Shown here in pieces: positions 10,843-35,903 of a stretch of 40,847 nt of DNA (positions within the stretch are counted from its first letter, which is position 1; the number at the start of each line of letters is the position of its first letter). Origin of the DNA: Candidatus Thorarchaeota archaeon SMTZ1-45 (GTDB lineage: Archaea; Asgardarchaeota; Thorarchaeia; Thorarchaeales; Thorarchaeaceae); assembly GCA_001563335.1 (NCBI GenBank), contig LRSL01000083.1, positions 1-40,847 of the forward strand. Reading direction: 5' to 3'. The notes under the pieces were generated by a model, which saw only the letters and a program-made list of their open reading frames with translations, did no database searches and was not told the DNA's origin. The translations under genes were made by a program, and so were the position numbers.

Positions 10843-11454
10843 TTAACCTACAGTTTTATGATAGTCCTCGCGAAACACATCGAGCCAGAAAGGAGCACCT
10901 TTTAGCTTTGATGCTTCTTCTGAGCTTAGTTCCTCATACTTAACCTTAGACATGTCGTCGGGAATGATTCCACTAACACCTGCTGGGTCTTCAATAACTA
11001 GAGTGAATCGAAATTCCCCTTCAATTGCAAGATCCATCATTTTAAGAATCTCAACACCCTTCGCCTTCTCTTCAGGTTGCTCTGCAAAATCAATGGCAGT
11101 TTCTACAACAGACATTGTCCGTTGAAGAACACCTTCAACATTTGTTATGAAAGATTCAGCTGCAGGACCAGGTTCAACATCAATGCCAAACTCTGGAAGT
11201 CTGAATGTACCAGACCCTGAACGAACAACACGGGCTCGGAGAAGTTCAGGATTATCAACATGAAGTGTGAAACGAGCAGGTTTCCTCTGCTCTGCTGAAA
11301 AAACATCATTATGACTGAAGTTACATAATGGACATTGCATTGAGAACATAGCTAACTCATTGAAGAAAGGGATACTATACAGTAGAGATCGTACTCTGAG
11401 TTTTGCCTTATCACAGGAGGGACACATTAAACTAATCTCTTCATTCTGCGACAT
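10843..11454 (-). CDS. ZPR1 zinc finger protein (single-module archaeal type)
   Basis: CPSC..IPFFNE..CPLC, IEPGP-like VEPGP, ITNVEGVL, IEDPAG; ORF track start is 11463. Confidence 0.92.
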   Translation of the reverse strand: MSQNEEISLMCPSCDKAKLRVRSLLYSIPFFNELAMFSMQCPLCNFSHNDVFSAEQRKPARFTLHVDNPELLRARVVRSGSGTFRLPEFGIDVEPGPAAESFITNVEGVLQRTMSVVETAIDFAEQPEEKAKGVEILKMMDLAIEGEFRFTLVIEDPAGVSGIIPDDMSKVKYEELSSEEASKLKGAPFWLDVFREDYHKTVG

Positions 11455-11637
11455 GAAAATCACATCTGCTGGAGGACATTATCCTATAAGGGTGACCATC
11501 GGGGATAATAGCTATTTGCTGAATACATCACTAGAAATCTCAAAAGCATCCGTGTAAGTAATTCATACAGACACGCAATGTAGTATCAAAGACAAATAGG
11601 ACTTGGGCAGTTCTTATAGAAACGAGGAGTACACCCC

Positions 11638-12843
11638 ATGGAAATCAATAGTATATACATCATAAAACGTGATACAGGGGTGTGTCTATATCATAAGGAT
11701 TTCACAGAGTCAGCGTTTGACCCGCAGTTATTATCATCATTTCTTGTTGCTATGACATCTTTTTTTGATGAAGCAACACGCTCAGTGACATCACAAGCAC
11801 GAGCGTTCGAAGGCACTCACTATAAGATAATAGTTGAATTTGGTGAATGGACTCTTGGAGCGGTTTCAACTAAAGAAGATACAGCAGATACTAGGACTAA
11901 ACTGAGAAGATTGATTGAACGGTTTGAAGAGCAATTTAATGTTCTTAGATGGGTTGATATTGACCTTGCTGTTCACACTAGATTTGAGCAGAGTGTCATT
12001 GATGAGTTTGTGAGAAGCATCATACATTCTGATACAATCATAACAGTTCGTCCAGAATGGAAACACTACACAAAGAAGGCGGAAGTTATCTCCTTCCTAC
12101 GATTGATACCTTCAATCTGCTCAGTTAAAGAGGCAGCAGAGTTCCTTGAGATTCCTCTTGAAGTGGGACTTAATTTAGCTGCTGAAGCATTATGGGAAAA
12201 AGCAATCACAGTAGATAATCCCGTAAAACCTGATGATATCTATCAAGCAATGTCCATCACAGGAACAAATCCATTAACAGGACCTATATCTCCCGAAACA
12301 GTAAGAACACTCACAGAGTTTGATGGAGAAACCCCAATATCAATTGCAGCTGAACGTCTTAAGACAGCAGATCTCAAGAGATTTCTCGATGATGTAGCCC
12401 TTCTTGAGAAGAGAAAAATGATTGAACTCGTATCGCCAGCGCATTCAGTGGCAATACGATACACATCAGCACTTCAGTCACTATTGAAGAATTGTGCGAA
12501 TATTATTGGTCTGAGTGTTATGAGGAGCGTTTTTTTGGCATCAAAGCAACAACTAGTGGCTAATTATCCTTGGCTTGCATTTGTCAGCTTAGAGGAAGGT
12601 GTTGATATTGAACTTAGGAGTTCCCTAACAGCTGCGACAATAAGGGGTACAATAAGTCCGGATGTAATCAATGATGGGTTTAGGGTTCTGCTGCAATTTG
12701 TCACAAAGAAAGTCAAAGATCTTCTGGGTTCAAATCCAATCAATAGAATAGTGACCAACACAAGAAGAGAGATACAAAATCATTTCCCAAGTACAGCTTA
12801 TGAAATAGAATGGGAGTATCTAACAGCCTTAAAATCATCGTAA
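11638..12843 (+). CDS. Longin-domain protein with winged-helix repeats (NPRL2/3-like architecture)
   Basis: N-terminal SIYIIKRDTGVCLY...DPQLLSSFLVAMTSF longin pattern; later FDGETPISIAAERL-type wHTH segments; GAGGAG SD. Confidence 0.7.
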   Translation: MEINSIYIIKRDTGVCLYHKDFTESAFDPQLLSSFLVAMTSFFDEATRSVTSQARAFEGTHYKIIVEFGEWTLGAVSTKEDTADTRTKLRRLIERFEEQFNVLRWVDIDLAVHTRFEQSVIDEFVRSIIHSDTIITVRPEWKHYTKKAEVISFLRLIPSICSVKEAAEFLEIPLEVGLNLAAEALWEKAITVDNPVKPDDIYQAMSITGTNPLTGPISPETVRTLTEFDGETPISIAAERLKTADLKRFLDDVALLEKRKMIELVSPAHSVAIRYTSALQSLLKNCANIIGLSVMRSVFLASKQQLVANYPWLAFVSLEEGVDIELRSSLTAATIRGTISPDVINDGFRVLLQFVTKKVKDLLGSNPINRIVTNTRREIQNHFPSTAYEIEWEYLTALKSS

Positions 12844-12904
12844 CAATATACAAAACAGGATTGAGAAACTCAATGAATATAGTGCATCAGGAGTAAGAAT
12901 CAGA

Positions 12905-13699
12905 TTGGCAAGGTGGATTTATGCAGCATTTGTCATTTTGTTGGGAATATTCATCCTTGTTGTTTCCGGAATTCTCGTAATGGTTGGTTTTGATGCACTT
13001 GTTTTCTCTGCAGCAAGTATCATCGCACCTATGGTTGCTCTTAGTATTGGAATAATGGGAATAAGCTTCTTTGGTCGGGAATCATTTCTGAAAGAGGACC
13101 GATTCCATACCCTAAACGTATGGATTGCATTTGGTTTGATTTTCTTTTGTCTAGCAGATATTACAGCGATTTTGGTATACATGAACGAAAATTCCGCACA
13201 AATCTGTTTCACAATAGGCCTTGTCCAGATACCTGGGTTACTCCTGTGGGCATTGGGAATAGTTGGATATCTTAAGTCCCTTAACTCATCATTGAAATTG
13301 ACTGAAGGAACTCAACTCTGGCTAGCTCTAGGAGTCATTACTACACTAACATCACTTTCACTTGTTGTAATTTTCGCGATATTATTTCCTTCAAGAAATC
13401 TACTATCAACCATAGTATCTGTACCAATAATCGTCGTTCTGGGGCTTATCCTTTGCATCATCTCTGGAACTTTATGGATTTTCAGAGATGGTTATCTTGC
13501 AAGACCGCTTCTCTTGCTATTTTTTGGAGTCGCGCTTCTCTTTATGCGTAGTGTGATCTGGCAAGTTGAAGATTATTGCAGTGGAAGTTCATTCAGCCAA
13601 ATAACAGCAATCGAGTCATATCTTCTCGTAGGAGCATCCTTTCTCATTGCAAGCAAACTGAATATCATCTTCGAATCCAGCGAAGGAGCAATGAGGTGA
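12905..13699 (+). CDS. Polytopic membrane protein (~8 TM), sensor-like
   Basis: About eight hydrophobic segments; W..FGL..F..AD pattern as in membrane sensor domains; AGGAG SD. Confidence 0.75.
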   Translation: MARWIYAAFVILLGIFILVVSGILVMVGFDALVFSAASIIAPMVALSIGIMGISFFGRESFLKEDRFHTLNVWIAFGLIFFCLADITAILVYMNENSAQICFTIGLVQIPGLLLWALGIVGYLKSLNSSLKLTEGTQLWLALGVITTLTSLSLVVIFAILFPSRNLLSTIVSVPIIVVLGLILCIISGTLWIFRDGYLARPLLLLFFGVALLFMRSVIWQVEDYCSGSSFSQITAIESYLLVGASFLIASKLNIIFESSEGAMR

Positions 13700-13713
13700 T
13701 CACCTCTTCTCGC

Positions 13714-15984
13714 TTATTCTGAATCTTCTTCCTCAGCTATTCTTCTAGCAATCATTTCACGGACATTGGGTGGCAATGAGTCTGGATCGCTTTTGTACTT
13801 CTCCTTAAGACTCTCTATCATCTCAGGAGATGGTCTTCCAGATCCAATTGGACCACCATGCCCACTCAGTTCTTGTTTTCCAAGTTCCCGCTTCTTATCA
13901 TCAGTCATACTATCTACCTCAATCATTCTTTCAAACATGTCACGCATTGAGGGTGGAATTGAATCTGGATCGGATTTGTAGAGATCTTTCATCCTCTCAA
14001 TCATCTCAGGGGAAGGCTTCATTCCACCCATACCACCACCCATTCCATCATGGCTCATTCCTGAGTTTAAAGCACCCATTTCCATCATCATCATGCCTGA
14101 GCTGGAGAGGACAGGGGCTTCAACACCATATTTTTCAACCTCAGACTTAGCTACTTCTGCAACCTCTTCTGTAATCTCTTCAATCCCTTGATGCGCGTAG
14201 TATGTATCATATAGAGACTTGAAGACCCCATTTAAGGCTAGTAGCTCATCATGAGTTCCCTGCTCCACCAAATCTCCGTGGTCAAACACAAGAACTCGAG
14301 ATGCATTTGCTATGGTTGTCAAACGATGTGCAATTACAATAGTAGTTCTATTTGAGAACAAACGTTCTTGAGCGTCTTGAACAAGAGACTCACTATATGC
14401 ATCCAATCTGCTGGTTGCTTCATCCAAAATGAGAATCTTTGGATCTGCCAACATTGTGCGTGCGATAGTGATCATCTGACGCTGTCCTGCACTAAGATTC
14501 TTTCCACCTTCTATGATACATGTGTCATATCCATCAGCAAGGACCTCAATGAATTCGTTCGCACCTATCATTTTGCAAAGATTGTCAATCTCCTCATCTG
14601 TAGCCTCAGGACGTCCATAACGTATGTTTTCAATAATGGTATCATCGAAGAGATATGGTTCCTGAGGGATCAAAGACATTGAATTGTGAAGTGACTCTTG
14701 AGTGACTAGTCGGAGGTTCTGACCACCAATGAAAATGCCGCCTTCTGTGGGGTCGTAAAAACGATTTACTAGTGCGGCGATAGTAGTTTTGCCAGCCCCA
14801 GTGTGACCAACTATTGCGACCATCTCACCAGGTTCAATTGAAAAAGTCACGTTATTCAGAACAGGAGTGCCTTTCACATACTCAAATGATACATTTTGAA
14901 AGTATATGCCATCGCTTTTCTTATCAAGTGGTATTGCTTCTGGATCATCTGTAATTGCTGGTTTAGACTCAAGAACATCTGAAACTCGATCCATTGCAGC
15001 AAGAGAAGCCTGTACCTGTGTAAACATCATACTTAGTCCAAGGAGAGGCCATAGGAATCTACCGATGAGTGCTATTCCTAAAAACACCTCACCTACTGAA
15101 AGGAGTGGAAACGTTCCAACAGCCAATGAACCAGCTACAAATAGCATTGCAGCCAGAGCAAATTGGCCAATGGATCTAACAAGGGGTTGCATTGCACTCA
15201 TGAGAATCATAAACCTGAAACCATGATGGTATGATTTTTGATTCAATTCCATCATTTTCTCTGCAAGCTCGCGTTCTCGATTGAAAGCTTTCGCAACATG
15301 AATCCCACTCAGATTTTCTGCAATCTGGCCAGATACAGCTCCAGAAGCTCTTCGAGATGCGAGCATGATTCTCTGGCCAACTGTGCCAAATAGTGCTGCA
15401 ATAAAAGCGACACCTGGAACTACAACCAATGATGTCAGTGCGATGAGTGGATTTACAATCCATAACAATAGGAATGAAGAAACAAGCATTAATGCCTGAC
15501 TTGCGAAGTCAATCAATACTTGAACACCTACGCCTAGTTCGACAGTGTCTGAAGTCACCCTAGAAGTCACATTTCCGCTCTGTTCTAACTTGTGATAAGA
15601 AAGGTCTGCTCTAAGAAGGTAGGAATAGAGGTCCTCTTGTATATTCTGTACAAACCCAGCTTGTGCACCAGCAAGAATCCATGTGTTGATACTACCAAGT
15701 GTCCAAGATGTGACTTTGAAGATTATGTAAAGGAGAGTCAGAAAGATAGTAGTGGCAATAACAGGATTTGCTACTAATAAGCTATCTATCCCAAATGATA
15801 GAATCAAGGGATCGAATACTGAAACAATTGTTGAAAGCAAAGACAAAACTGCACCAATAGCTACTATTCTTCTGAATCTACCAAGATAATGGACCATTCT
15901 ACCTAGAAGAACACGAATGGGTCTACTTCTCTTCTCTCGTTCACCTGCAAGTGCTGTTGGACCTCGTCGTCCATGCATAGCCAT
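13714..15984 (-). CDS. ABC exporter, fused TMD-NBD, consensus-site subunit (TM288-like) with C-terminal extension
   Basis: GHTGAGKT, LSAGQRQ, ILDEATS, IAHRL; extra ~155-aa tail. Confidence 0.93.
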   Translation of the reverse strand: MAMHGRRGPTALAGEREKRSRPIRVLLGRMVHYLGRFRRIVAIGAVLSLLSTIVSVFDPLILSFGIDSLLVANPVIATTIFLTLLYIIFKVTSWTLGSINTWILAGAQAGFVQNIQEDLYSYLLRADLSYHKLEQSGNVTSRVTSDTVELGVGVQVLIDFASQALMLVSSFLLLWIVNPLIALTSLVVVPGVAFIAALFGTVGQRIMLASRRASGAVSGQIAENLSGIHVAKAFNRERELAEKMMELNQKSYHHGFRFMILMSAMQPLVRSIGQFALAAMLFVAGSLAVGTFPLLSVGEVFLGIALIGRFLWPLLGLSMMFTQVQASLAAMDRVSDVLESKPAITDDPEAIPLDKKSDGIYFQNVSFEYVKGTPVLNNVTFSIEPGEMVAIVGHTGAGKTTIAALVNRFYDPTEGGIFIGGQNLRLVTQESLHNSMSLIPQEPYLFDDTIIENIRYGRPEATDEEIDNLCKMIGANEFIEVLADGYDTCIIEGGKNLSAGQRQMITIARTMLADPKILILDEATSRLDAYSESLVQDAQERLFSNRTTIVIAHRLTTIANASRVLVFDHGDLVEQGTHDELLALNGVFKSLYDTYYAHQGIEEITEEVAEVAKSEVEKYGVEAPVLSSSGMMMMEMGALNSGMSHDGMGGGMGGMKPSPEMIERMKDLYKSDPDSIPPSMRDMFERMIEVDSMTDDKKRELGKQELSGHGGPIGSGRPSPEMIESLKEKYKSDPDSLPPNVREMIARRIAEEEDSE

Positions 15985-20376: not shown

Positions 20377-20454
20377 GATGGAATCCACTCGCTATTTCGA
20401 TAGAGGTATATGCATTCGTTCTATTTCAGAGATTCTATTGTGTTGGTGAATAAC

Positions 20455-21018
20455 ATGAAGAAACGAGTCCTTGTCTGTTTGACAGGTGCTAGTGGTGCGA
20501 TATACGGAGTTCGACTTCTGAGAGCTCTGAAAGCGAGTGACAATGAGGTTCATCTAATCATTAGTAAATGGGGCGAGGAAACTCTCAAGTATGAAACAGG
20601 CATTGACAAAGATACTATCAGCAAGGAAGCTGACTACTCCTATGATGAACATGACCTTGCTGCAGGTCCTGCCAGTGGCACCTTCCCAATTGATTCAATG
20701 GTTGTCATACCCTGCTCGATGAAGACCCTAGCAGGTATTGCTCATGGATATGCTGATAACCTTATAGCACGAGCAGCTGATTGTACCCTGAAAGAGAGAC
20801 GTACTCTCATTCTTGTTCCCAGAGAATCTCCCCTCAATCTCATTCAGATTCGAAATATGGCAACAGTAACTGAGGCGGGAGGATTAGTAATTCCGGCAAG
20901 TCCTGCATTTTGGGCTAAGCCTAAGACAATTGATGAGCTTGTAGACTCAGTGGTAGAACGTGTGCTAACTCATCTTGGAGTTACTGATGACAAACGGGCT
21001 ATGTGGACTGGCGATTAA
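20455..21018 (+). CDS. ubiX: Flavin prenyltransferase
   Basis: TGASGA, ASG, PCSMKTLA, RAAD..LKERR, PRESP; start at MKKRVLV (ORF track gives 20410). Confidence 0.93.
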   Translation: MKKRVLVCLTGASGAIYGVRLLRALKASDNEVHLIISKWGEETLKYETGIDKDTISKEADYSYDEHDLAAGPASGTFPIDSMVVIPCSMKTLAGIAHGYADNLIARAADCTLKERRTLILVPRESPLNLIQIRNMATVTEAGGLVIPASPAFWAKPKTIDELVDSVVERVLTHLGVTDDKRAMWTGD

Positions 21019-21023
21019 TTGCT

Positions 21024-22871
21024 TTACCCCCAATGCAAAGGAGTGCCACAGTGATCACAGATGACAGTTTCTCCTGGAAGTGCACGTTTAGGCAATGCCG
21101 CTCCACATTGGGCACATTCTATCTTCTTAGGTGCAAGATCATCAGTCTTAGCTTGTAGTTTGAGAAGGACCTCTCTGAGATTGTCACGCATCTCAGATAG
21201 AAGCATATTCATCTTATTCTCATCATCACTCGCGACTGAGATCCTCATTGTTAGATTGTCCTTTGAAACTGAGCCAATCACAATATATTCTGTACCAGCT
21301 CTAGCTTTTCCATAATACCACGATTCTTCTCCATTCTTGGTACCGCTCTTTTCGCCAACAAACCTTACACTCTGTTGTTCAATTATGTCATTAACAATAT
21401 CGAGCATTTCTTGAACATCAGCATCTGGATCGATTTGATATTCTGCAGCCCTCTCTGTTTGTAATCGAGTTTCGAGGAGCTTTTCTAGATCAGACATTGT
21501 CATTGTTGAAAGATACGCATCCCGAGCTATTGCAGCGTGTGCTGTTGGAATCTCAACCTTGCTCTCACCATGATTGTTGCAGCTGAGACTTGCTTCAGAC
21601 TTGTCACCTTTGTCTTCGATGAATGACAGAGTTAATGGATTGTGACATTTATGACACTCGTATAGTTGACGATAGAATCGTTCAATGACTGGTTCGTTGG
21701 CACCAACCGGAAGATGTCGTTCAGCACCATGTCCATTTCGACACTCCATTTTTAGACTGATTGTATTATCACGTACCTTTGTGTCACGGATGGTCATTGG
21801 CGATTTGCATTTTTCACACGTGAGGCTCTCTTCAGCAGAGGACATCCTATCAATGTGTTTGTTTCGTTCTTCGATATGCTTGTAAATACCCATACTGACA
21901 CTTTTCTTTAATTCACCATGAACTGGACAAACAAGTTTCAATTCTACATCATTGCCACTGACCTTTGTTTCACCGATATCGGTAACAAGATTGCAATCAT
22001 TACACTTCAGAACACCACCAACTATGGCATCAATGGCTTCTTCATCTAAATCTGCAGGCTGAGATAATTCAATACTGTGACCATTCATGCAACTGCATTT
22101 GAGCTTGTATTTCATCTTATCAAGTTCAGCAGATTTAATGGATAATGATTCTCCGCAATCACGACAGTTTAGCATTGAACGTACGATGCTACCCTCAGAC
22201 ATGGCTTCAACGATCGATTCTATCATCCATGCATATTCAGCAGGAAGTTCTTTCTTTGTTTTGCCATGTGCAGGACATGAGATTTCAATCTGAGCTTTGT
22301 TGCCTTTTGGTTGTGTTTCCAATACTTGACATGGGAGACCACACTCATCACAGTGAATGAGTCGTTTTATGACTGTCTTCAGAACCGATTCGTCTGCAAT
22401 CTTGGGTATAAATCTCATCTCTTTATGTCCATTGGAACAACGTGATTTTACTTCAAGTATGCCCTTCTTTTCGGAAATCTCACTAGCAGTAAATACTCCA
22501 CCACACCGAGGACAACTCATAGAGTCAAGAATTGATTTTGAGCAGTTCATGCTGCCCTGAAGTCCTGCTACAGATGAGTGGTAGAAAGATGGTATCTCTC
22601 TTTTTTGAGGACCATGTATTGGACAGACGAAGATATACTCTGCTTTGTGTTTGCCCACATCAGTGTTCATTAATGTCATTGTGGACCCACATTCGATGCA
22701 TGTGAAGATGCCTTTGAAGACTTCATGCGCCATGCTATCAGCCTGATATCTTGAAATGTCCCTCTTCCCCTTGTGACCCTTCATACACTGACAATAGACT
22801 CGGAGGGTATGACCCTTTAGCTCCCCAGTCTGAACATAGAAAGGTTCCTTACATTTCTTGCAAGTGAACAT
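21024..22871 (-). CDS. Multi-Cys3His metal-finger repeat protein with platform-like domain and terminal zinc ribbon
   Basis: 8 repeats of CxxC-x~20-(CxxGH/CPxHG), about 57 aa each; terminal CAQC..CDHC; ATG 22871 follows a GGAGG SD (ORF track gives 22886). Confidence 0.85.
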   Translation of the reverse strand: MFTCKKCKEPFYVQTGELKGHTLRVYCQCMKGHKGKRDISRYQADSMAHEVFKGIFTCIECGSTMTLMNTDVGKHKAEYIFVCPIHGPQKREIPSFYHSSVAGLQGSMNCSKSILDSMSCPRCGGVFTASEISEKKGILEVKSRCSNGHKEMRFIPKIADESVLKTVIKRLIHCDECGLPCQVLETQPKGNKAQIEISCPAHGKTKKELPAEYAWMIESIVEAMSEGSIVRSMLNCRDCGESLSIKSAELDKMKYKLKCSCMNGHSIELSQPADLDEEAIDAIVGGVLKCNDCNLVTDIGETKVSGNDVELKLVCPVHGELKKSVSMGIYKHIEERNKHIDRMSSAEESLTCEKCKSPMTIRDTKVRDNTISLKMECRNGHGAERHLPVGANEPVIERFYRQLYECHKCHNPLTLSFIEDKGDKSEASLSCNNHGESKVEIPTAHAAIARDAYLSTMTMSDLEKLLETRLQTERAAEYQIDPDADVQEMLDIVNDIIEQQSVRFVGEKSGTKNGEESWYYGKARAGTEYIVIGSVSKDNLTMRISVASDDENKMNMLLSEMRDNLREVLLKLQAKTDDLAPKKIECAQCGAALPKRALPGETVICDHCGTPLHWG

Positions 22872-22961
22872 ATTCTTCTCCTCCACCTGGCGTGCGGCGG
22901 CGAACCTAAACCAGGTGTGTTAAGGTCCCTAAAAGATATTCCGTAAGTGGATAGATTTGCC

Positions 22962-25238
22962 CTATTGTAGATAGAGGGCAATGGTTAAAGTTGCTGTACA
23001 ATACTTACAACGAATTGGGAGGCGTCTTCCCATCTCTTCAACTTGTTCAACTTCTAGCGGTGCACCACAGCGAAGACAGACCCAAGAATCCATTGTTTCA
23101 GCCAGTTCATCAATAGTAGTGGGGAGCATTGCTACATCTTCACCAAGTGCTTGAACTCTCACACATGAATGCCGTCCATTTTCTGGGCCACTTATTAGAA
23201 TGATGACTGCAACCTTTTTCTGAGTGTACTTTCCTTCTGCATATCCCCTGATTGTGCCAATGAATTCTCCACCCACAATGCGTTCTTCACTATCAATAAT
23301 ATGGAAATTCTTTGCAGGCAGGATTTTTTCCGCTTTTGTGAAAAGTACTTGAGCATTCCAGTCCAGTGTTTGTTCTTGCTGCGTTTTCTCAAGACCTGTC
23401 AATATGAACTCAAATGATTCAGATGTTTTCTTAGAAGGCTGAAGCAAGTCGCAGACTGATCTTATCAGATACGGTTCAACACTTACAGTATGTAGTTGAT
23501 CTAGGAAGTCAATATAAGATACAGTAGCTACTATTTTGCCCTGCACACAGTCTTTTGTTGGGTAGAGTGTGAATTGAGGGCTTCTAAAGCCACCAACTTC
23601 AATTCGTGATATCGTTTTGACATTTTCACCTGCTAGTTCCATGCAATCCTGTGGATATGCAACAATGGAAACAGTGACGTTGGTTATTACATAGCCACTA
23701 TCATTCCTCACCTTGACCTTGAAATCAAATTTGCCTCCAACAATCTCACACCCCCGGAAAACTGCAACTCCAGTTTCGCTATGATCAATTGTAGTAGAGG
23801 AATCCTCCAAAATAACAGGAAACTCCGGTTCAGACACCTCAATGGGAGGTTTAGTCTTATCCTCTTGGATTTCATTATACGCGGCTTGCATGGCTTCAGC
23901 ATGGTCAGGTGGAATTTCAAGTACAGTTTTTCCATGAAGCGGGCAAAGCAGAACAACTCGATCCTCACGAACATGAGGTTCAATATAGACGAGGTCGAGA
24001 GATTCGTAGCATTCAGGACACTGATAGAGCCTCTTGTATAACCCAGTTAGCGTTTTTTGATCCAATCCAGGAATGAACAATCTTTTACTTCGATGCCCAT
24101 TTCGGCATTCAACATCCAGCTCTATTAGATTGCGTCGTTCTTCAACATCGCGAACGTTCACTGGCATACTGCATTTTTCACAGCTCAGACTCCTAACGAT
24201 TGAAGGCATTCGGTCAATTAATACTTGGTTTTCTTCAACCAATTTGAAGACATCAGGTGGTACCTCACGTTTCATTACACCATGAACAGGACATACTATT
24301 CTAAATCCAACTTTCTTCTTTGTCTTCTTCTTGTCAAGGATATGAGTGAGATGACCACACTCATCACAGGTTAAGAGTGCAGTTGCAACACGTTGTACTA
24401 CTGACTCAGTCCAAGCTATTGGTAAAACTCTGTCTGGAGTGCTTTTTGTGCCAGGACAGATACATTTCAGCTTGTACCCTTGTTTATCTTCTTCAATACT
24501 TCTTATAGCGAGTGACCGACGGCAGTCATGAGAAGTAAGTGAAGATTTTACGACTGCATCATCAGGAATCTCAGATACAGCCTCTTGAAGGAGATCAATT
24601 TGAGTTGATAGAATATCCTTCTTTGATGTTCCATGAATAGGACATGATGTTGTAAGTCGTGCGGTATTCCCCCGCGTTTCTATATCAGTAATATGACCTG
24701 GTAAACCACATTTGTCACAATGGACAACTCGTTGTAGAATATTCTTTAGCAAGCTAATTTCTAGACTGCTGGGAAGATATCTTGTGGTTTTGTGACCATT
24801 CGCGCATCGAGTTTCTACTTCAAAAATACCTTGTCGCAAGTCAATCTCATTAACTGCGAATACTAACCCGCAATATGAGCATCTAAATGAGTCAATGATT
24901 GAACGAGGGCTGTCAATATCTGCACCTGCAAGTTCTACCATTGCATGAAAAGCACGAGGAAACTCACGCTTCTGCGGTCCATGTATTGGACAAAGAAAGA
25001 TACTCTCAATGCTATTTCCATGACCACGTTCCTCAATATGGGTCATATTAGAACCACATTCTGTACATGTATAGAGCCTTTTGAAAACTTCAGGAGCCAT
25101 ATCTTTAGCCTGATGTTCAGATAGTCGGCGAACGCTCTTGTGACCTCTCAGACATTGTACATTCATTGTCAGAATCTTATCTTTCATCTCAGCACTTCGA
25201 ATGTAAAGGGGTTCACTGCAGCTCTTGCACGAAAACAC
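22962..25238 (-). CDS. Multi-Cys3His metal-finger repeat protein with Ig-sandwich plus platform (adaptin/coatomer appendage-like) module and terminal zinc ribbon
   Basis: 8 repeats (the 5th degenerate); GGKFDFKVKVRN..ITNVTV beta-sandwich; terminal CLRC..CKYC; paralog of the neighbouring gene. Confidence 0.85.
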   Translation of the reverse strand: MFSCKSCSEPLYIRSAEMKDKILTMNVQCLRGHKSVRRLSEHQAKDMAPEVFKRLYTCTECGSNMTHIEERGHGNSIESIFLCPIHGPQKREFPRAFHAMVELAGADIDSPRSIIDSFRCSYCGLVFAVNEIDLRQGIFEVETRCANGHKTTRYLPSSLEISLLKNILQRVVHCDKCGLPGHITDIETRGNTARLTTSCPIHGTSKKDILSTQIDLLQEAVSEIPDDAVVKSSLTSHDCRRSLAIRSIEEDKQGYKLKCICPGTKSTPDRVLPIAWTESVVQRVATALLTCDECGHLTHILDKKKTKKKVGFRIVCPVHGVMKREVPPDVFKLVEENQVLIDRMPSIVRSLSCEKCSMPVNVRDVEERRNLIELDVECRNGHRSKRLFIPGLDQKTLTGLYKRLYQCPECYESLDLVYIEPHVREDRVVLLCPLHGKTVLEIPPDHAEAMQAAYNEIQEDKTKPPIEVSEPEFPVILEDSSTTIDHSETGVAVFRGCEIVGGKFDFKVKVRNDSGYVITNVTVSIVAYPQDCMELAGENVKTISRIEVGGFRSPQFTLYPTKDCVQGKIVATVSYIDFLDQLHTVSVEPYLIRSVCDLLQPSKKTSESFEFILTGLEKTQQEQTLDWNAQVLFTKAEKILPAKNFHIIDSEERIVGGEFIGTIRGYAEGKYTQKKVAVIILISGPENGRHSCVRVQALGEDVAMLPTTIDELAETMDSWVCLRCGAPLEVEQVEEMGRRLPIRCKYCTATLTIALYLQ

Positions 25239-25347: not shown

Positions 25348-25866
25348 TTACTCTTCAAAAGTGTCAGAGTTCTCAGAAGAATCCTCATCCTCTTCTATAT
25401 CCTCAACTACCTTTTTTCCTGGGCTCTTTGATGTTTCTCTCTTTTTCTTCGATTCAATGAAATCTTCTAAATCCTTAACAATTGGGATATCAGCCCTTTG
25501 AAGAGCTAATGAAGAACCATAGAATAAAATCAGGATTCCACCAAAAACGATCATAGCGGGACCGATAAACCATCCTACTACAGGTACTAGGAATATATAG
25601 TATCCTAATACTTGAATAAGTCCACCTATCAGCAATCCAGGAAAAGCGATGTTGACAGGTTTCGTCATCGCAGACTGTACTGTTAGAATGCAAGTAAGTC
25701 CAAACCCGACAACTGTGAAGAAAACGCCTATAAATTGGATAAAGAAGCCCAAGTACCAAATAATGGCTCCAATCAATATCATTACAATGTTTTGTGATGT
25801 TGTTAATTGTTCAAATACTTCTAGTGGCTTGTCATCCATTTTCCTCACCAATACTGTTGCGTACAT
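25348..25866 (-). CDS. Hypothetical membrane protein (~4 TM) with basic then acidic tail
   Basis: Two similar TM hairpins; tail KKKRE...DIEEDEDSSE. Confidence 0.75.
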   Translation of the reverse strand: MYATVLVRKMDDKPLEVFEQLTTSQNIVMILIGAIIWYLGFFIQFIGVFFTVVGFGLTCILTVQSAMTKPVNIAFPGLLIGGLIQVLGYYIFLVPVVGWFIGPAMIVFGGILILFYGSSLALQRADIPIVKDLEDFIESKKKRETSKSPGKKVVEDIEEDEDSSENSDTFEE

Positions 25867-25899: not shown

Positions 25900-27174
25900 C
25901 TACTGACTTCCAGTTGTGTCAACACTCTCAAGAACTCTATCTGCAGGTTTCTTTAGCTTAGTTCGATACCCACGGGTTGTGTACACACGCACCGGCTTTA
26001 GGATTCTCGAGAAGCTTCTGGCCATTGGGCTCAAGTCAGTAGCATGCCAAAACTCGTAGCCACTGGAACCTCGTTCAAAGAGAACAAGATCTTCAAAACC
26101 GAATCGTCCAGGATAGAATGTTACAGATGCTCGGTCAGGATAGTCAATGTAGACATTACTTGGATCAATACCAGCATCATCTGCAATCTCTTTTTCCAGT
26201 GAATATAGTCCATCAGCTGTTGCTAGCTTTCCTAGGAATGTCGGGTCTGAAATAGCTCTTGAGCTAACTAGCTTGATGAGATTCCTTCTTCTAAAGTCAT
26301 TATAGATAGCTTTTGCCACTTTCATCTCATCAGTGTCATCAGGTGTGATATGGAGCAACTGGTATAGAAACGATAAATCATCACACCTCAGAAATGATTC
26401 AAGATCCTCGGTAGGTAGAGAAACCAATTGAGACCCGACCTCATCTAAAATCCTAAGAAGCATAAGTTCCGCTGCACGAACGGTCTTATGGAAATAGACA
26501 GCCTCAAACATGTTGGCTGCAGCAGACAAGTAAGATTCTAGTGTGAACAGAGAACTTCGTTCAACTGCAATCTTGTTCTTTGCTATCCTAGTAGCAGAGA
26601 ATAGTCTTCTGAATTCGAGCTGTGCATATTCCACTCCTGCAAAGTATGAGTCTCGTTCAAGGTCATCTATAAGCTCAGGATTGATTGGACAGTGAATGAG
26701 GTCAATATTAATCCCTCTTATGGGAATTCCTTTGTGAATGAGGTCAATTACTTCATTTTTAGTGAAGCCATGATTTTCAACAATATCTCCAACTTTGGAC
26801 TGTCCGACGATTAACTTCACAATCCTGGGACGAGTTATGCCTCGTACAGAGAGAAATTCCTCAGATACATTTCCCCAAGGACCATTGGTCAGCATTAGAA
26901 GCAATGACGCAAGTCTACCCTTGAGAACTTCATCAACATCACCACCCAAGTACTCGAGGAAAACCTCGGTCATGTGCATGAACCCTAGTGTTCTACCCAT
27001 CAAAGACGTAGCAGCACCAGGATAAACCAGTGATAGTCCTGCAGGACTCTGAATGTACCGAAGTCTTTGACTCAATCGTAAATCGATGATCTCCTTTTCT
27101 AGAGCAGTCAAAGCGATATATCCATGGATTGGGTCTTTGATTTCGATGACTATGGGGAAATCTGTCAATGGCAT
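25900..27174 (-). CDS. SAMHD1/dNTP triphosphohydrolase-like HD-domain protein, catalytically degenerate
   Basis: IKDPIHGYI, QRLRYIQ, VYPGA, RDSYFAGV and VYFHKTVRAAE retained; metal ligands absent. Confidence 0.85.
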   Translation of the reverse strand: MPLTDFPIVIEIKDPIHGYIALTALEKEIIDLRLSQRLRYIQSPAGLSLVYPGAATSLMGRTLGFMHMTEVFLEYLGGDVDEVLKGRLASLLLMLTNGPWGNVSEEFLSVRGITRPRIVKLIVGQSKVGDIVENHGFTKNEVIDLIHKGIPIRGINIDLIHCPINPELIDDLERDSYFAGVEYAQLEFRRLFSATRIAKNKIAVERSSLFTLESYLSAAANMFEAVYFHKTVRAAELMLLRILDEVGSQLVSLPTEDLESFLRCDDLSFLYQLLHITPDDTDEMKVAKAIYNDFRRRNLIKLVSSRAISDPTFLGKLATADGLYSLEKEIADDAGIDPSNVYIDYPDRASVTFYPGRFGFEDLVLFERGSSGYEFWHATDLSPMARSFSRILKPVRVYTTRGYRTKLKKPADRVLESVDTTGSQ

Positions 27175-31049: not shown

Positions 31050-31928
31050 TTGTTCGTTCCGAGCAGGAGGTCGTTACGATTAGTCGAAATTCAGGAGAGT
31101 GTTCTTCCTGAAGATGAGTGGCTGATAGGAATCTCTGACCTCGGATATTTCAAAGGAGTTGGATACTCCATGCCTATCGTCAATGAGTATGGCGATGAGA
31201 ATGATTTAGGTAACCTCTATGCGTTCCTGCCAGGGTTATTCTATTGTTCATCTCAACAGACATCGGTTGATGCTGTGTTAATTGAGGTTACTCACAAAAG
31301 CCTATCAGGAGTTATGCTTCCTAGCTTCAGACCTGAGGATGTTAGAACATTTGATGTGAGTGGCGGATTATACTTAGATGAGAAAGGGAAAATCAAACCG
31401 GTTGAATTGACAACGGACACCCTTGGAAGTTTTGGGGTGGAGTCTTTTCTAAGAGACTCTGGGTTAAAGCAGGAAGCATTCAATTACAAGAGGGAGGTCC
31501 AGATTGCTTCTCATCTTGCTGGGATAGTCCCACTGAGTGAACTGAAAAAAGCCTACGTTTCTAGCTCATTCTTACAATCAAGACTCATGAAGTTGCTCGA
31601 TGATATTCAGTTCTATGGACTCAAACCTCGAAAGAGAGTTTATGTGAGAAACAGAAACCATCCCTATGGTACTGTGGTTGATGTGAAGTACGGAGGTCTT
31701 GATGATGAAACTAAGTTCGAAACTGGAGTGAGACTTAGAATTCCCGATGATTTGAGATTAGAAAAGGAACTGAGCAATCTTTCATTTTCAAAAATGGTCG
31801 ATTCCGGGGTTGAGATAGATGTAGAGAGAGCAATCCTTGACATGTTGTTATACGTCAGGTTCGAACTAGAGGGTAATGTGAATCACAAAGATGTCTTGAA
31901 GAAACTGTTTGAGGAGGAATCTGGTTGA
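31050..31928 (+). CDS. Hypothetical protein
   Basis: 292-aa ORF, GGTGA upstream, 4-nt overlap with the next ORF. Confidence 0.75.
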   Translation: MFVPSRRSLRLVEIQESVLPEDEWLIGISDLGYFKGVGYSMPIVNEYGDENDLGNLYAFLPGLFYCSSQQTSVDAVLIEVTHKSLSGVMLPSFRPEDVRTFDVSGGLYLDEKGKIKPVELTTDTLGSFGVESFLRDSGLKQEAFNYKREVQIASHLAGIVPLSELKKAYVSSSFLQSRLMKLLDDIQFYGLKPRKRVYVRNRNHPYGTVVDVKYGGLDDETKFETGVRLRIPDDLRLEKELSNLSFSKMVDSGVEIDVERAILDMLLYVRFELEGNVNHKDVLKKLFEEESG

Positions 31929-33451
31929 GCCTAGATCTTGAGAACATGACAAGGTCAATTGTAGAGAACCTTCATCAGACATGGCTCTATAGGGCAATTG
32001 AGGGCTGGTGTCGAAGTGATGCACTTGAATTGAGAGAGGAACTGGGTCTTGCGAGTTTCTCTATCACAACCTCAGACCCTGTTGAGATGTATCAGAAAGT
32101 CAAGACACATTTGCTCTCTAAGACATTTCATGATGATGAAACCTTGCAATTCCTTATGGATGCACCACGTTGGGTAGGTTTCACCTTGGAAAAGGATGAA
32201 TTTCAGTCTGGTCAACAGGTCATTGGGGCAGCGAGGAATGAGGCGATCGCTTTACTTTGGCTAATGGCGATTCCAAAGCTTATCATCAAGCCTACAGTCT
32301 TTCCAGAGGATTACCCAATTGATGGTATTAAGATATTCATCAGTAGCCTAATGTCGTCAGACAAGACACGAGATCTGTTAGTACATTATATGTCCAAAGC
32401 TATGGAGTTGCGGGGTATACATGATATTGTATTTGAACCAAATCCCATTGGGAGAGGGTATATAATTGATGATGCAATAAGACCGCAGCGACTAAGGTCA
32501 CTTCTCGCGTTGATGATAATGCGATCAACAAAGCATACTTATGATTTGGACAAGGTGTTCACCCTTAACGAAGAGCAGATTGTTGAAGAAGCATCTGCAT
32601 ACATAGTATCAATGCAAGCAAAGTCGATGCTAAAGAATCAAATAACAGGCGGCGTGATGCTACGACCGTTTGATTGGCCATTGATTGGAAATCCCAAAGT
32701 TTGTAATGGATTATTTTCAACCTTGAATGTGCTCCAACAAAGCACCTCAAAGATGGTTACTTGCACTACATATACATATGAAACTGCGGAAAAGCAAACT
32801 CCTTGGAGCCGAAGTGATTTCATTTCATTCTTAATAAAAGAAATAACAGAACATTATTCAGAGATACATCGAATTCGTCATGGGAAAAGCAAGAATACTG
32901 AACTTGATTTGTTTATAGAATTGCTAACTGGGGAAAATATCAAGATAGCAAAAAGACTCCTTAGAGCAGATGATCCTGGTGCAGCATTATTTGAGGAATT
33001 GAATGATTATAAACAGAAGGCAAAGAGTGGAGAGAAACCTCAAATCACACCAGAGCGTCGTTTTCGAATAGTTCTATCTTCTTTGAAACAACAAGTATCA
33101 GAGGATAAATTGGAAGAAACTTCATCAAATGAGGTGATGGACCAGATTAACGAAGCCTTTGATGCGATTATTGGGGTTGTTGAAAGTCACGAGAAGTCTC
33201 TTGGTGATGAAGCTGAAAGGTTTGCACAGGCACTCTGTTTTGAAACCGCTTACCGAATTCTTCAACTTCTAGATGTTGGAGATGCCCTCATGGACCTTCC
33301 GTGGGTTTCCAGATTTGTCGCTGAAGAATCTGCAAGGTCAGATATCTCAACAGGAGAGATAAGTAATTTAGATGATGAACATCGCATCAAGAGGATCGTT
33401 TCCGCTTATGCGGGTGGTCTTACATACCTTATTCTCCAAAACCAGAACTGA
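31925..33451 (+). CDS. Hypothetical, predominantly alpha-helical protein
   Basis: 508-aa ORF, GAGGAGG SD, TTGA overlap with the upstream gene. Confidence 0.8.
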   Translation: MSLDLENMTRSIVENLHQTWLYRAIEGWCRSDALELREELGLASFSITTSDPVEMYQKVKTHLLSKTFHDDETLQFLMDAPRWVGFTLEKDEFQSGQQVIGAARNEAIALLWLMAIPKLIIKPTVFPEDYPIDGIKIFISSLMSSDKTRDLLVHYMSKAMELRGIHDIVFEPNPIGRGYIIDDAIRPQRLRSLLALMIMRSTKHTYDLDKVFTLNEEQIVEEASAYIVSMQAKSMLKNQITGGVMLRPFDWPLIGNPKVCNGLFSTLNVLQQSTSKMVTCTTYTYETAEKQTPWSRSDFISFLIKEITEHYSEIHRIRHGKSKNTELDLFIELLTGENIKIAKRLLRADDPGAALFEELNDYKQKAKSGEKPQITPERRFRIVLSSLKQQVSEDKLEETSSNEVMDQINEAFDAIIGVVESHEKSLGDEAERFAQALCFETAYRILQLLDVGDALMDLPWVSRFVAEESARSDISTGEISNLDDEHRIKRIVSAYAGGLTYLILQNQN

Positions 33452-33481: not shown

Positions 33482-34396
33482 TTACGTGAATGTCCTCAAT
33501 AGCATATCCCATCTATGCTGTATGAAGTCCTCAATCTCTTTGATTTTCTTATCGTCACGCTTAGGTCTGAATAGGTGGGAGAAACGGCCTTGCATTTTCA
33601 GGAACTCATCTATAGGTTTTCGTTTCTCAGGATCTTGGAATCTTTTGCTGTGCATTCCAAGTGTGAATTCATCACCCACACGTTCCCATTGAATCCAGTA
33701 GCCAGTTTCCACAGCTAGCTTACCAATCTCCACACCTTTCTCCACAGGATAATTCCATGCCTGTGGACATGGAAGGAAAATATGGCCAAACTTAGGTCCC
33801 TCGAACTCACGCGCCTTCTTGAACTTGTCAAAGAGGTCTCGGGGATATGAGGTGTTTGCTGTGAATTGATACACTGGCTCATGAGCAGCCACGATGAAGT
33901 CAAGCATCTTCTCAGGTTCCGTCTTGCCAAACCAGGTAGTTGTGGTCTGAGCATGAAGTGGTGTTGCTCCCGACCGTTGAGTTCCTGTATTGCTGTAAAC
34001 TTGGTTATTATAGCAGATATAGAGGAAATCAGTTCTACGCTCGAATGCTCCACTTAAAGCTTGTATCCCGATATCGAAGGTTCCACCATCACCAGCCCAA
34101 ACCATCACAATAGTGTGATCGTTACCCTTAGCCTTTAGAGCAGCCTTTACACCTGATGCAGTTGCAGCAGATGCCATGAACGCAGTATTAAGCACAGGAA
34201 TACCTAGACCGCTCTTTGGCCATAGTGACTGAACAACACTCGTACAACAGGCTGGGACCACTTGGATCACATCTCCCTCTAGTGCCTTGTGGGCGTGTCT
34301 CAAAGCGACCATGTCCTGACAACCTGCACATGCTGCGTTACCCTTCAGTACATATTCCTTGAGTGGCATTTCTTTAGTTGCTACCATTTCACTCAC
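33482..34396 (-). CDS. porB: Pyruvate/2-oxoacid:ferredoxin oxidoreductase beta subunit
   Basis: ACAGC, GDGGTFDIG..NN TPP-binding motif, YSNTGTQRSGATP, PCP. Confidence 0.9.
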   Translation of the reverse strand: MSEMVATKEMPLKEYVLKGNAACAGCQDMVALRHAHKALEGDVIQVVPACCTSVVQSLWPKSGLGIPVLNTAFMASAATASGVKAALKAKGNDHTIVMVWAGDGGTFDIGIQALSGAFERRTDFLYICYNNQVYSNTGTQRSGATPLHAQTTTTWFGKTEPEKMLDFIVAAHEPVYQFTANTSYPRDLFDKFKKAREFEGPKFGHIFLPCPQAWNYPVEKGVEIGKLAVETGYWIQWERVGDEFTLGMHSKRFQDPEKRKPIDEFLKMQGRFSHLFRPKRDDKKIKEIEDFIQHRWDMLLRTFT

Positions 34397-35571
34397 TCCT
34401 TCAAGTCATTCCAAGTTTCTTCAGGACCAAGCTCACCGCTTTCTACAGCTTTATACGTGTCCAATATCACAGCCTTGATGTCTGGTATGGTCATGTCACG
34501 ACCACCAAGACCGCCAATATAGCTCTTTATCATGGGTCTGTTTTTAGTATGGTACATTGATGCGCGAATGTCGTTTGCTACCGGACCACCGAAACCATAT
34601 GAAACCCCTCTATCAAAACTTGAGAATGCCTTCACGCGGCTTCCAAGATCACGAATCTCTTCAACAGGGAATGGCCGAATCATTCGAATCCTAGTATTTC
34701 CAGCCTTGTATCCCTCATCACGAAGCTCATCAATAGCATCCTCCGCCTCAGCTCCCATAGAACCCTGTGATGTAAATACAACGTCAGCATCATCACACTT
34801 GTAGCAATCGATTGGGCCTCCAAAGTATTTCCCGAAGTGTTTCTTGTAATCTCTCTCCACTTCTTCATAGACTTTTAAAGCAGCCTTTGTGCCCTCATGC
34901 ATCATATTACGGAACTCACCATAATGTTCAGGAAACACGATGTTTCCATGACTAATAGGATTTTCAGGATCCATTACCCAATGTGGCGGAGTGTAGGGAG
35001 GAAGGAACTCGTCGACTTCCTCAGGTTCAAGATAATCATACGGTGACACTGTATGGCTCAGTACAAAACCATCGGAGTTGACCATTACAGGCATCAGAAC
35101 GCGTTCATCCTCTGCGAGCTTGAACGACTGGATAATCGTATGGTACAGCTCATCAACACTTGCAACATAGAATTGAATCCAGCCAGTATCACGCTTCGAG
35201 TAAGAGTCATCATGAGTAACGTGAATATTCCAGCTTGGAGAAACTGACCTGTTAATATTGTTCAGTACAATTGGTAGTCTCGCTGCAGCAGCCCAATGTA
35301 ATGCTTCGTCCATAAGAAGTAGACCGTTTGAGGATGTAGCTGTGAACGCTCGAGCTCCTGTAGAACTGGCTCCAATGCATGCAAACATTGCAGAGTGTTC
35401 CGACTCTACACGAATGAATTCTCCTTTGAAGATACCTTTCTCGTTCAAGAGAGCAATCTGCTCGGGTACGGTTGTTGCAGGTGTAATTGGGTATGCTGCA
35501 ACGACTTCAACTCGTGCAGAAACCACAGCTCGAGCAGCTGCATAATTGGCACTCATTATCTCTGTCTTCAT
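34393..35571 (-). CDS. porA: Pyruvate/2-oxoacid:ferredoxin oxidoreductase alpha subunit
   Basis: AAYPITP, VESEHSA, TATSSNGL, DGFVLSH, RPFP, GLGGRD; ATG 35571 overlaps the delta-subunit stop (ATGA). Confidence 0.9.
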   Translation of the reverse strand: MKTEIMSANYAAARAVVSARVEVVAAYPITPATTVPEQIALLNEKGIFKGEFIRVESEHSAMFACIGASSTGARAFTATSSNGLLLMDEALHWAAAARLPIVLNNINRSVSPSWNIHVTHDDSYSKRDTGWIQFYVASVDELYHTIIQSFKLAEDERVLMPVMVNSDGFVLSHTVSPYDYLEPEEVDEFLPPYTPPHWVMDPENPISHGNIVFPEHYGEFRNMMHEGTKAALKVYEEVERDYKKHFGKYFGGPIDCYKCDDADVVFTSQGSMGAEAEDAIDELRDEGYKAGNTRIRMIRPFPVEEIRDLGSRVKAFSSFDRGVSYGFGGPVANDIRASMYHTKNRPMIKSYIGGLGGRDMTIPDIKAVILDTYKAVESGELGPEETWNDLKE

Positions 35572-35903
35572 CCCTCTGAACCTCCTACTGGGAGCGAGTC
35601 TCCAATTGAATCTGAGGTGCGTACCATCTCGATGCATTTCTTTGGACATACCTCAGCGCAGATCCCGCAGCCTTTACAATAGTCAAAATCCCAAACAGGA
35701 TAGTCATCCTCACCTATGCTAATAACGGCCTCTGGGCAATGCAGCCAACAAGTGCGGCACTTATTGCACTCATCATAGTTGACTATTGGATCGAAGGTCC
35801 GCCAGCTCCCGGTCTTTCCAGTTGAGCCAATCATGGGTTTGGAGTAAGAGGTCTTTGGCATGTCCTTCTTGCCCGTAGGCTCAGTATTTACCTCATTAAC
35901 CAA
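35568..35903 (-). CDS. porD: Pyruvate/2-oxoacid:ferredoxin oxidoreductase delta subunit (2x[4Fe-4S])
   Basis: KTGSWRTFDP, CNKCRTCWLHCP, DYCKGCGICAEVCP. Confidence 0.92.
   Translation of the reverse strand: MVNEVNTEPTGKKDMPKTSYSKPMIGSTGKTGSWRTFDPIVNYDECNKCRTCWLHCPEAVISIGEDDYPVWDFDYCKGCGICAEVCPKKCIEMVRTSDSIGDSLPVGGSEG

Follow-up and report, generated by a model that had tools for sequence, protein, structure and literature searches.

A pair of adjacent genes encoding zinc-ribbon arrays

We analysed a 40,847-nt stretch of DNA from Candidatus Thorarchaeota archaeon SMTZ1-45 (contig LRSL01000083.1, positions 1 to 40,847; hereafter the window), in which two adjacent genes, here called A and B, encode proteins built largely from arrays of Cys3His units (Table 1). 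B lies upstream of A on the same strand, the gap being 75 bp, or 90 bp when counted from the ATG of A. This ATG, at residue 6 (22871), is probably the true start of A and would give a protein of 615 aa, because most orthologues have this length and the ESM Atlas record starts there. Counted from it, A and B share the opening (M/V)F(T/S)CKxC, in agreement with a first-pass annotation made from the sequence alone.

Table 1. Coordinates of genes A and B and of their predicted parts; residues of A are counted from the GTG.
Feature	Position	Strand	Description
Gene A	21024..22886	-	620 aa from GTG; four di-ribbons, TBP-like domain, terminal ribbon; immunoglobulin-like (Ig-like) domain absent
Gene B	22962..25238	-	758 aa; four di-ribbon super-repeats, hinge, Ig-like domain, TBP-like domain, terminal ribbon
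B array, residues 1-464	23847..25238	-	eight zinc-ribbon units forming four 116-aa di-ribbons; full Cys3His set in 7
B unit 5, residues 232-286	24381..24545	-	degenerate ligands S-x2-C ... C-P-G-T; fold (strands) still predicted
B hinge, residues 463-490	23769..23852	-	acidic (isoelectric point, pI, 4.05), Pro-rich, predicted disordered
B Ig-like beta-sandwich, residues 491-593	23460..23768	-	proximal half of appendage-like module; AlphaFold2 (AF2), Foldseek, weak TRAP_beta/CARDB matches
B distal alpha/beta domain, residues 594-718	23085..23459	-	highly conserved, poorly modelled, presumed TBP-like; homologous to P0301 311-596
B terminal CxxC...CxxC zinc ribbon, residues 719-758	22965..23084	-	
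A array, residues 5-468	21483..22874	-	eight units, Cys3His ligands in all
A C-terminal alpha/beta domain, residues 478-579	21150..21455	-	AF2 topology S1-H1-S2-S3-S4-S5-H2, TBP-like/helix-grip
A terminal CxxC...CxxC zinc ribbon, residues 588-620	21027..21125	-	weak LysW-type ribbon match

Both proteins were searched with the regular expression CxxC-x21-C-x2-3-H. Eight matches were found in A, with the first Cys at 9, 63, 125, 179, 241, 295, 357 and 411, and seven in B (4, 58, 120, 174, 291, 353 and 407); 2000 residue shuffles per protein gave mean motif counts of 0.004 (A) and 0.0025 (B), and no more than 1 in any shuffle. The x21 spacer never varies and the units are spaced alternately by 54 and 62 aa, which yields a super-repeat of 116 aa. 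All 15 intact units have His as the fourth ligand, and the knuckle endings alternate between CxxGH in odd units and CPxHG in even units, the exception being unit 8 of A (CNNHG). The remaining unit, number 5 of B, reads SHDC...CPGT. The first-pass annotation had proposed eight units of CxxC-x~20-C-x2-3-H, alternating between the two knuckle types and grouped into four super-repeats; the regular expression, the shuffles and the orthologues described below all bear this out, with a spacer of 21. The alignment of A with B is colinear, with 39% identity across 454 aa (E 1e-123). A second high-scoring segment pair is register-shifted, matching A 4-231 to B 231-459 (28%, E 8e-27), and the internal repeat is therefore evident.

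Conservation of the ligand sites

Searches at E up to 0.001 recovered 99 A-type and 167 B-type relatives. Their organism names are all Asgard, mostly Thorarchaeota, together with Sifarchaeia, Promethearchaeota and one Odinarchaeota, and their functional names are 'hypothetical' or automatic zinc-ribbon labels throughout. Alignments of 34 sequences per type show no ligand of the 15 intact units conserved in fewer than 30 of the 34 rows, the shortfall being mostly N-terminal gaps in unit 1. The terminal CxxC...CxxC ribbons (A 591-613, B 721-747), which the first-pass annotation had noted, are present on both proteins and their Cys residues are invariant in 34/34 orthologues of each.

A census of the ligands was taken across orthologues from 53 related genomic loci (24 A, 45 B). 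All eight A sites are intact in 20/24 orthologues, with one substitution in the other 4. For B, each of units 1-4 and 6-8 has its full ligand set in 42-45 of the 45 orthologues, and unit 5 in none (0/45). The loss of ligands that had been read from unit 5 of the longer paralogue is thus shared by 45/45 orthologues, which indicates that it is ancient and tolerated. In the most divergent orthologue, at locus L052 (36% identity), unit 3 has none of its four ligands left and the repeat is retained; one ligand each is also missing from units 4, 5 and 8. Further metal sites have been lost in L037, L041, L042 and L044, again with the repeat persisting.

The di-ribbon as the repeating unit

Profile searches indicate that the evolutionary unit is a 116-aa di-ribbon, consisting of two zinc ribbons plus helices. 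A profile of 40 aligned 116-aa super-repeats (8 from the window, 32 from the related loci) was run against 1.84 billion representative proteins, giving 167 matches at E<=0.001, 22 at 1e-10 and 9 at 1e-30. The best 150 of the 167 were re-scored locally, a di-ribbon being counted as full when it covered at least 85 of the 116 positions. A full di-ribbon is present in 74 of these 150 proteins, half of one in 20 and short stretches only in 56. Among the 74, the di-ribbon occurs once in 66, twice in 2, three times in 1 and four times in 5. All five four-copy proteins are the A/B family's own representatives and the three-copy protein is of the L052 type, with one copy degenerate. By this count the four-copy array is confined to the A/B family in the library searched.

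The first di-ribbon begins no more than 30 residues from the N-terminus in 50/74 proteins. Typical single-copy proteins are 130-250 aa long and comprise a di-ribbon, a Pro-rich linker and a C-terminal ribbon, although some end in a PCI-like winged helix instead (P0284: 22.2 bits, cut-off 22). Organism names, found on 8 of the 20 clusters checked, are all Asgard (Helarchaeota 5, Lokiarchaeota 1, Promethearchaeota 1, Ranarchaeia 1); Ranarchaeia belongs to the kingdom Promethearchaeati. Because single-copy di-ribbons are spread through other Asgard proteins, what had been taken for an octamer of fingers is better described as the four-fold amplification of an Asgard-wide two-ribbon domain. The earlier proposal that a small Cys3His fold had been polymerised therefore stands in part: the modules are real and conserved and the array is confidently modelled, but what repeats is the 116-aa di-ribbon and not a 57-aa finger.

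Two other architectures were observed among the matches. In P0278 (Ranarchaeia, 527 aa, partial), 2.5 super-repeats precede a run of repeated segments that are helical, winged-helix-like and without a Pfam match, and P0382 (Helarchaeota, 1448 aa) has a single di-ribbon at its C-terminus. Multi-stretch matches at profile positions 65-98 (e.g. P0293) were set aside as DUF723/DUF4379 'CPxHG...CPKC' repeats, a separate family; proteins of this kind are among the 56 with short stretches only.

Predicted fold of the arrays and profile searches

AF2 models computed with orthologue alignments gave A a mean predicted local distance difference test score (pLDDT) of 88.7 and a predicted template modelling score (pTM) of 0.69, and B residues 1-462 a pLDDT of 81-95. 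The modelled unit consists of a CxxC knuckle, two strands leading to the third Cys, a C-x-x-H knuckle, a third strand and one or more closing helices, one in odd units and two in even units. Motif positions and models together give every unit two knuckles and three strands, and the units are in these models of zinc-ribbon topology.

None of the 16 single units reaches the gathering score of any Pfam family, the best score against PF13408 being 18.1 bits, and the weak unit matches are to generic ribbons (Zn_ribbon_recom, Zn_ribbon_4, TFIIB, GRF-like and Ogr/Delta). Whole A scores 39.2 bits against PF13408, Zn_ribbon_recom (cut-off 25.3), a sum of four weak stretches; this family has no domain-level match in A and no match in B, and the recombinase domain is absent. 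Searches of PDB sequences with both proteins and four profiles (those of the proteins and of the super-repeat among them) gave nothing below E 0.05, and no enzyme family matched A or B in Pfam and NCBIfam scans. The first-pass annotation knew of no characterised protein with this architecture, and likewise no Pfam, NCBIfam or PDB entry matches it, the Pfam library having been scanned without PF26040. Precomputed PF26040.1 assignments occur on 7 of the 99 A-type matches and on 1 B-type match. The NCBIfam scan yielded nothing above cut-off, and a weak Sel_Asgard match (E 0.01; 15.7 bits, cut-off 132) was discarded. Whole-chain Foldseek matches of A to beta-propellers and other beta-repeat proteins (template modelling score, TM, <=0.15) were taken as repeat artefacts.

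An adaptin-appendage-like C-terminal module

The first-pass account of the C-termini was limited to the terminal ribbons and left aside the last 300 residues of B and the last 160 of A. These regions include the best conserved part of B and provide the sole functional lead, an adaptin-appendage-like module. In B, the hinge (463-488, pLDDT <50) is followed by a beta-sandwich at 491-593 (AF2 pLDDT 70-84) and by residues 594-718, whose column identity of 0.8-0.9 is among the highest in B yet whose pLDDT is <50. On the AF2 and Foldseek evidence, residues 491-593 provide the proximal Ig-like sandwich of an appendage-like region. In Foldseek searches of the PDB the B model matched the AP2 alpha-appendage (7ohi_A, 1w80_A, 3hs8_A, 1b9k) with probability 1.00 and TM(target) 0.39-0.42 over ~230 columns. 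COPI (9qpq_H, 0.42), the beta2-appendage (2iv9_A) and BBSome subunits containing such ears were also matched, while TRAP-beta matches the sandwich alone with TM(target) 0.50-0.55. Language-model features of B 485-758, which are leads only, scored 0.77 and 0.76 against eukaryotic adaptin-appendage clusters (PF02296/PF02883/PF09066); above these ranked the cluster of B itself (0.97) and unnamed Thorarchaeota/Promethearchaeota clusters with lengths of 355 and 329 aa (0.95, 0.93). Sequence profiles of the module gave TRAP-beta, CARDB and DUF11 matches, all sub-threshold. By these comparisons the module resembles the adaptin/COPI appendage at the level of fold.

Residues 478-579 of A are modelled at pLDDT ~85-93, and their predicted order of strands and helices (Table 1) is that of the TBP/helix-grip topology given for the distal appendage subdomain by Makarova et al. 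(10.1101/2024.02.06.579148). With hhalign, the whole B module matched the Helarchaeota protein P0301 (98.2%, E 4.5e-14, 256 columns) and the A C-terminus matched P0301 463-596 (95.6%, E 1e-8, 125 columns). These links through P0301 suggest that A carries the distal half of the module without the Ig-like half.

Judged from its relatives, the module is a mobile unit carried on varied N-terminal parts. A 768-aa Helarchaeota protein (L053, 7496-9802, +) has many transmembrane helices followed by the module (36% identity), and a 486-aa Thorarchaeota protein (L024, 3828-5288, +), encoded between UbiX and DUF2070, is a further multi-transmembrane example. In complete shorter paralogues (P0244, P0247, P0259, P0260 and P0245) one N-terminal transmembrane helix and a linker precede it, whilst in P0220 it follows a coiled coil and in P0242 TPR repeats. 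Moreover, P0301 (601 aa) and P0388 (444 aa), both from Helarchaeota, consist of one di-ribbon, a linker, the module and a terminal ribbon, which is the plan of B with one super-repeat. The complete Thorarchaeota chromosome CP070761.1 (3,157,342 bp) encodes B and two module paralogues.

Synteny and the relationship between A and B

The order HD_assoc_2 gene, four-transmembrane gene, B, (A), UbiX, DUF2070, PadR, ABC, ABC is kept throughout the 53 related loci. B is present in all of them. The flank is readable in 46, of which 24 have A behind B and 22 lack it there, and unreadable in the other 7. Evidently, B works without A in many lineages. A quick IQ-TREE phylogeny of the arrays places the 25 A rows in one group and the 45 Thorarchaeota B rows in another, with Shimodaira-Hasegawa approximate likelihood ratio test values of 87 and 98. 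It follows that A did not arise by a recent duplication within B. Because the row of the outgroup, L052, had been cut one unit too short and has a long branch, we draw no order of events or date from this tree.

A candidate trunk-hinge-ear scaffold and its alternatives

We place about even confidence in the reading that A and B, which belong to a Thorarchaeota-type Asgard archaeon, serve as scaffolds or adaptors and not as enzymes, being built on a trunk-hinge-ear plan and having structural metal sites that probably hold Zn. The four tandem di-ribbons form an N-terminal trunk, which structural metal (most likely Zn) would stiffen into a multivalent interaction surface. The acidic hinge of B, predicted to be disordered, joins this trunk to the module of Ig-like, TBP-like and Cys4-ribbon domains, mirroring the plan of the adaptins, and the ear-like module may serve as a protein-interaction hub near membranes, like adaptin appendages. 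B could then be the soluble counterpart of the membrane-anchored paralogues, and A a faster-evolving derivative of B. The metal sites are likely structural because all B orthologues tolerate the loss of one central site and there is no enzymatic or redox domain. Membrane-proximal protein-protein recognition is suggested because the paralogues often carry the module on membrane anchors. Of this picture, the layout of the domains and their conservation, the mobility of the module and its resemblance in fold are observed, while the kind of metal, the stiffness of the trunk, the hub role and any partner are predicted.

Several observations weigh against this scaffold reading. The Foldseek superpositions are poor (root mean square deviation ~16 A), because the distal half of the B module is modelled at pLDDT <50. 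No Pfam appendage family (PF02883, PF02296, PF09066) was matched by P0002 (E up to 10) or by the 19 module sequences (E up to 1), and no PDB sequence match ties the module to eukaryotic adaptins. Direct hhalign comparison of the A C-terminus with the B module matched the terminal ribbon only, at 23% probability, so that the link between the two modules runs via P0301. The rigid, elongated shape of the trunk is inferred from pTM only. Moreover, the same ligand pattern binds Fe in the tetraether synthase GDGT-MAS, and the metal in A and B is predicted only. The gene context is housekeeping, syntenic clade-wide and uninformative on function; since the whole region is syntenic, the adjacency of A and B also says little about what they do. 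Among the 29 window open reading frames (ORFs) scanned there was no match to an ESCRT, ubiquitin or coat family.

The arrays might instead bind nucleic acid, with the eight ribbons reading or clamping DNA or RNA and the C-terminal module recruiting other factors. The ribbons of TFIIB, RpoP, Elf1 and the large serine recombinases are nucleic-acid-binding comparators, the units do match the Zn_ribbon_recom, TFIIB, GRF-like and Ogr/Delta families weakly, relatives are named automatically 'RpoP/Elf1/topoisomerase Zn-ribbon' by source pipelines, and a K/R is conserved behind the second knuckle of each ribbon. However, these matches all stay below the gathering score for single units, A passes PF13408 only by summation, and the arrays are near neutral (pI 7.0 and 7.8) and not basic. 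Paralogues that carry the same C-terminal module on membrane anchors are likewise not suggestive of work on chromatin or RNA, and we regard this alternative as rather unlikely. It is slightly harder still to credit that A and B are an obligate heterodimer, functional only as a pair, which we rate as unlikely. Many paralogous scaffold pairs heterodimerise, and A adjoins B downstream on the same strand both in the window and in most of the 24 A-bearing loci. Against this stand the 22 loci in which B has no A beside it and chromosome CP070761.1, which carries B and gave no A-type match (judged from each match's longest contig). Furthermore, ~1-1.5 kb separate B from A in L010, L012, L013 and L038, the insert of L012 holding an opposite-strand ORF for a hydrophobic 223-aa protein (12316-12987, -), and A diverges faster than B within the same genomes (46% against 67% identity). 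A complex prediction of A 455-620 with the B module (score 0.00, mark 0.32) was neutral on binding. The heterodimer that the first-pass annotation had inferred is unsupported.

Least probable of all, in our view, is an Fe poly-rubredoxin wire, in which redox-active Fe in each Cys3His site would relay electrons along the chain. The rubredoxin knuckle is CPxCG, and the CPxHG of the even units echoes it. In addition, the pattern of ligands comes close to that of the GDGT-MAS Fe site, C-X2-C-X20-C-X2-H (PMC9433317). Yet the unit-5 site, whose absence in every B orthologue would cut such a relay, and the further sites missing from L052, L037, L041, L042 and L044 weaken this option, which had been offered beside a Zn-based rod, as the repeats are kept where their ligands are gone. 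Neither rubredoxin nor GDGT-MAS was matched at E up to 10 by protein or profile, the C-terminal domains are interaction folds and not redox folds, and the window encodes no membrane redox complex; genes for POR/TPP enzymes lie ~8-10 kb off (33482-35649) with no tie to A or B.

Returning to the trunk-hinge-ear scaffold, a more specific form of it, proposed by analogy and in our estimation quite improbable as it stands, would make B and its derivative A an Asgard-specific cargo adaptor, either independent of the coat-adaptor plan or ancestral to it. Four di-ribbons would here take the place of the alpha-solenoid and make multivalent contact with a repeated ligand, for instance ubiquitin-like modifiers, and the ear would recruit membrane-remodelling factors. 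ESCRT-0 and ESCRT-II contain ubiquitin-binding zinc fingers, on which the suggestion of a ubiquitin-like ligand is modelled. If this were true, the di-ribbon would be a new Asgard-wide recognition domain. Asgard archaea are intensively searched for precursors of eukaryotic membrane trafficking. Should the function prove mundane, the A/B family would still offer a compact natural example of what is modelled as a rigid poly-zinc-ribbon scaffold. The family and its paralogues form a concrete, expressible set of proteins with which to ask what archaeal 'ears' bind.

Neighbouring genes

Directly upstream of B and co-directional with it is a gene (25348-25866, -) for a 172-aa protein with four transmembrane helices and a disordered C-terminal tail that is basic and then acidic. 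Orthologues are present in 24 loci and their juxtamembrane segment is conserved. The acidic tail was considered as an ear-binding motif and dropped, there being no motif-level conservation across the 24 orthologues. Next to it, 25900-27174 (-) encodes an HD_assoc_2 protein with no Pfam HD match; by eye its N-terminal region looks like the HD domain of dNTP-triphosphohydrolases, with the metal-binding His/Asp positions replaced.

B always lies tail-to-tail with a UbiX-type flavoprotein gene (20410-21018, +, in the window). In L052 a 420-aa gene (12338-14123) is found between B and the UbiX-type gene, and its product, by eye, is presumably an aconitase-X-type enzyme. Isoprenoid-pathway genes may therefore be conserved neighbours, although the whole region is syntenic.

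Elsewhere in the window, five ORFs (>1103, 292, 508, 401 and 264 aa) at 37538-40846 (+), 31050-33451 (+) and 11638-13699 (+) have no Pfam match at E<=0.001. The four that were queried, those of 292, 508, 401 and 264 aa, are syntenic across Thorarchaeota loci. The window also encodes a WD40 beta-propeller protein (4741-5889, -) and a homologue of ZPR1 (zinc finger plus jelly-roll; 10843-11463, -), both of eukaryote-like families.

Comparison with known systems

The single-domain precedent named by the first-pass annotation, a Cys3His rubredoxin-like domain in Tes/GDGT-MAS, is correct: GDGT-MAS is described with a mononuclear Fe 'rubredoxin' domain of pattern C9-X2-C12-X20-C33-X2-H36 (PMC9433317). 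A and B share its Cys3His set and a nearly equal spacing, their spacer being one residue longer (X21) and the last interval X2-H in even and X3-H in odd units. Unlike the arrays, the GDGT-MAS domain is a single, Fe-binding copy on a radical-SAM enzyme. It was not among the PDB sequence matches at E up to 10 with either the proteins or the profiles, including that of the super-repeat, and therefore the likeness is one of ligand pattern only. The Rubredoxin family gave no match at E up to 10 and its four Cys ligands differ from the A/B set, where the fourth is His.

Generic zinc ribbons (PF13408, TFIIB, RpoP, bL33 and the C-terminal domain of aIF2-beta) share the two knuckles and the three-stranded sheet with the A/B units, in line with the weak profile matches. 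They differ from A and B in that the latter have His as the fourth ligand, a spacer fixed at 21 residues and a helical linker, and are obligately paired as the 116-aa di-ribbon. Closer are small Asgard di-ribbon proteins (P0291 and P0301 of Helarchaeota, P0310 of Lokiarchaeota and P0278 of Ranarchaeia), which share the 116-aa di-ribbon; P0301, P0388 and P0362 also share the C-terminal module of B. These small proteins differ in having one copy, rarely two, in place of four, and in their Pro-rich linkers and PCI-like winged helix or DZR-type ribbons.

Regions resembling appendages, with an Ig-like domain and a TBP fold, have been described in archaeal and Asgard sorting systems, where they are read as interaction hubs and are sometimes joined to Zn ribbons, transmembrane linkers, TPR or PCI domains (Makarova et al., 10.1101/2024.02.06.579148). 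One family, arCOG15284, is named 'Adaptin (TRAP-beta) appendage domain' in the supplement to Makarova et al. 2024 (mBio). Like these proteins, B has an Ig-like sandwich, followed by a presumed TBP/helix-grip domain, plus a Zn ribbon. As described there, those proteins were found via ESCRT neighbourhoods or fusions to Vps28-C or the steadiness box (SB), and neither applies at the A/B locus: A and B contain no Vps28-C or SB domain, and no neighbouring Vps4 or ESCRT-III occurs among the 29 ORFs scanned. The di-ribbon and its array are not described in the text of Makarova et al. or in 10 of the 13 mBio supplementary files (files 6, 7 and 9, and the bioRxiv supplements, excepted). The main text of Koestlbacher et al. 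2026 (PMC12962969) contains none of the words 'adaptin', 'appendage', 'zinc' and 'coat', and full-text searches on Thorarchaeota/Asgard zinc-ribbon repeats listed no title or abstract opening that concerns the A/B family.

The plan of B, a repeat trunk, a flexible hinge and an ear of sandwich plus presumed platform, is shared with the large subunits of eukaryotic adaptins and COPI (AP2 alpha, beta2, gamma-COP) and with BBS2, BBS7 and BBS9 of the BBSome. In those proteins, however, the trunk is an alpha-solenoid or beta-propeller, whereas B has the di-ribbon array and an extra terminal Zn ribbon, shows no detectable sequence similarity to them and has no identified partner subunits. In Asgard archaea, the appendage-like module is a mobile part hung on membrane anchors, TPR repeats or di-ribbon arrays. 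Appendage-like regions of Asgard archaea were known already, while the 116-aa Cys3His di-ribbon, a domain that this locus defines across Thor-, Hel- and Lokiarchaeota and Ranarchaeia, and its four-fold array appear to be newly described here.

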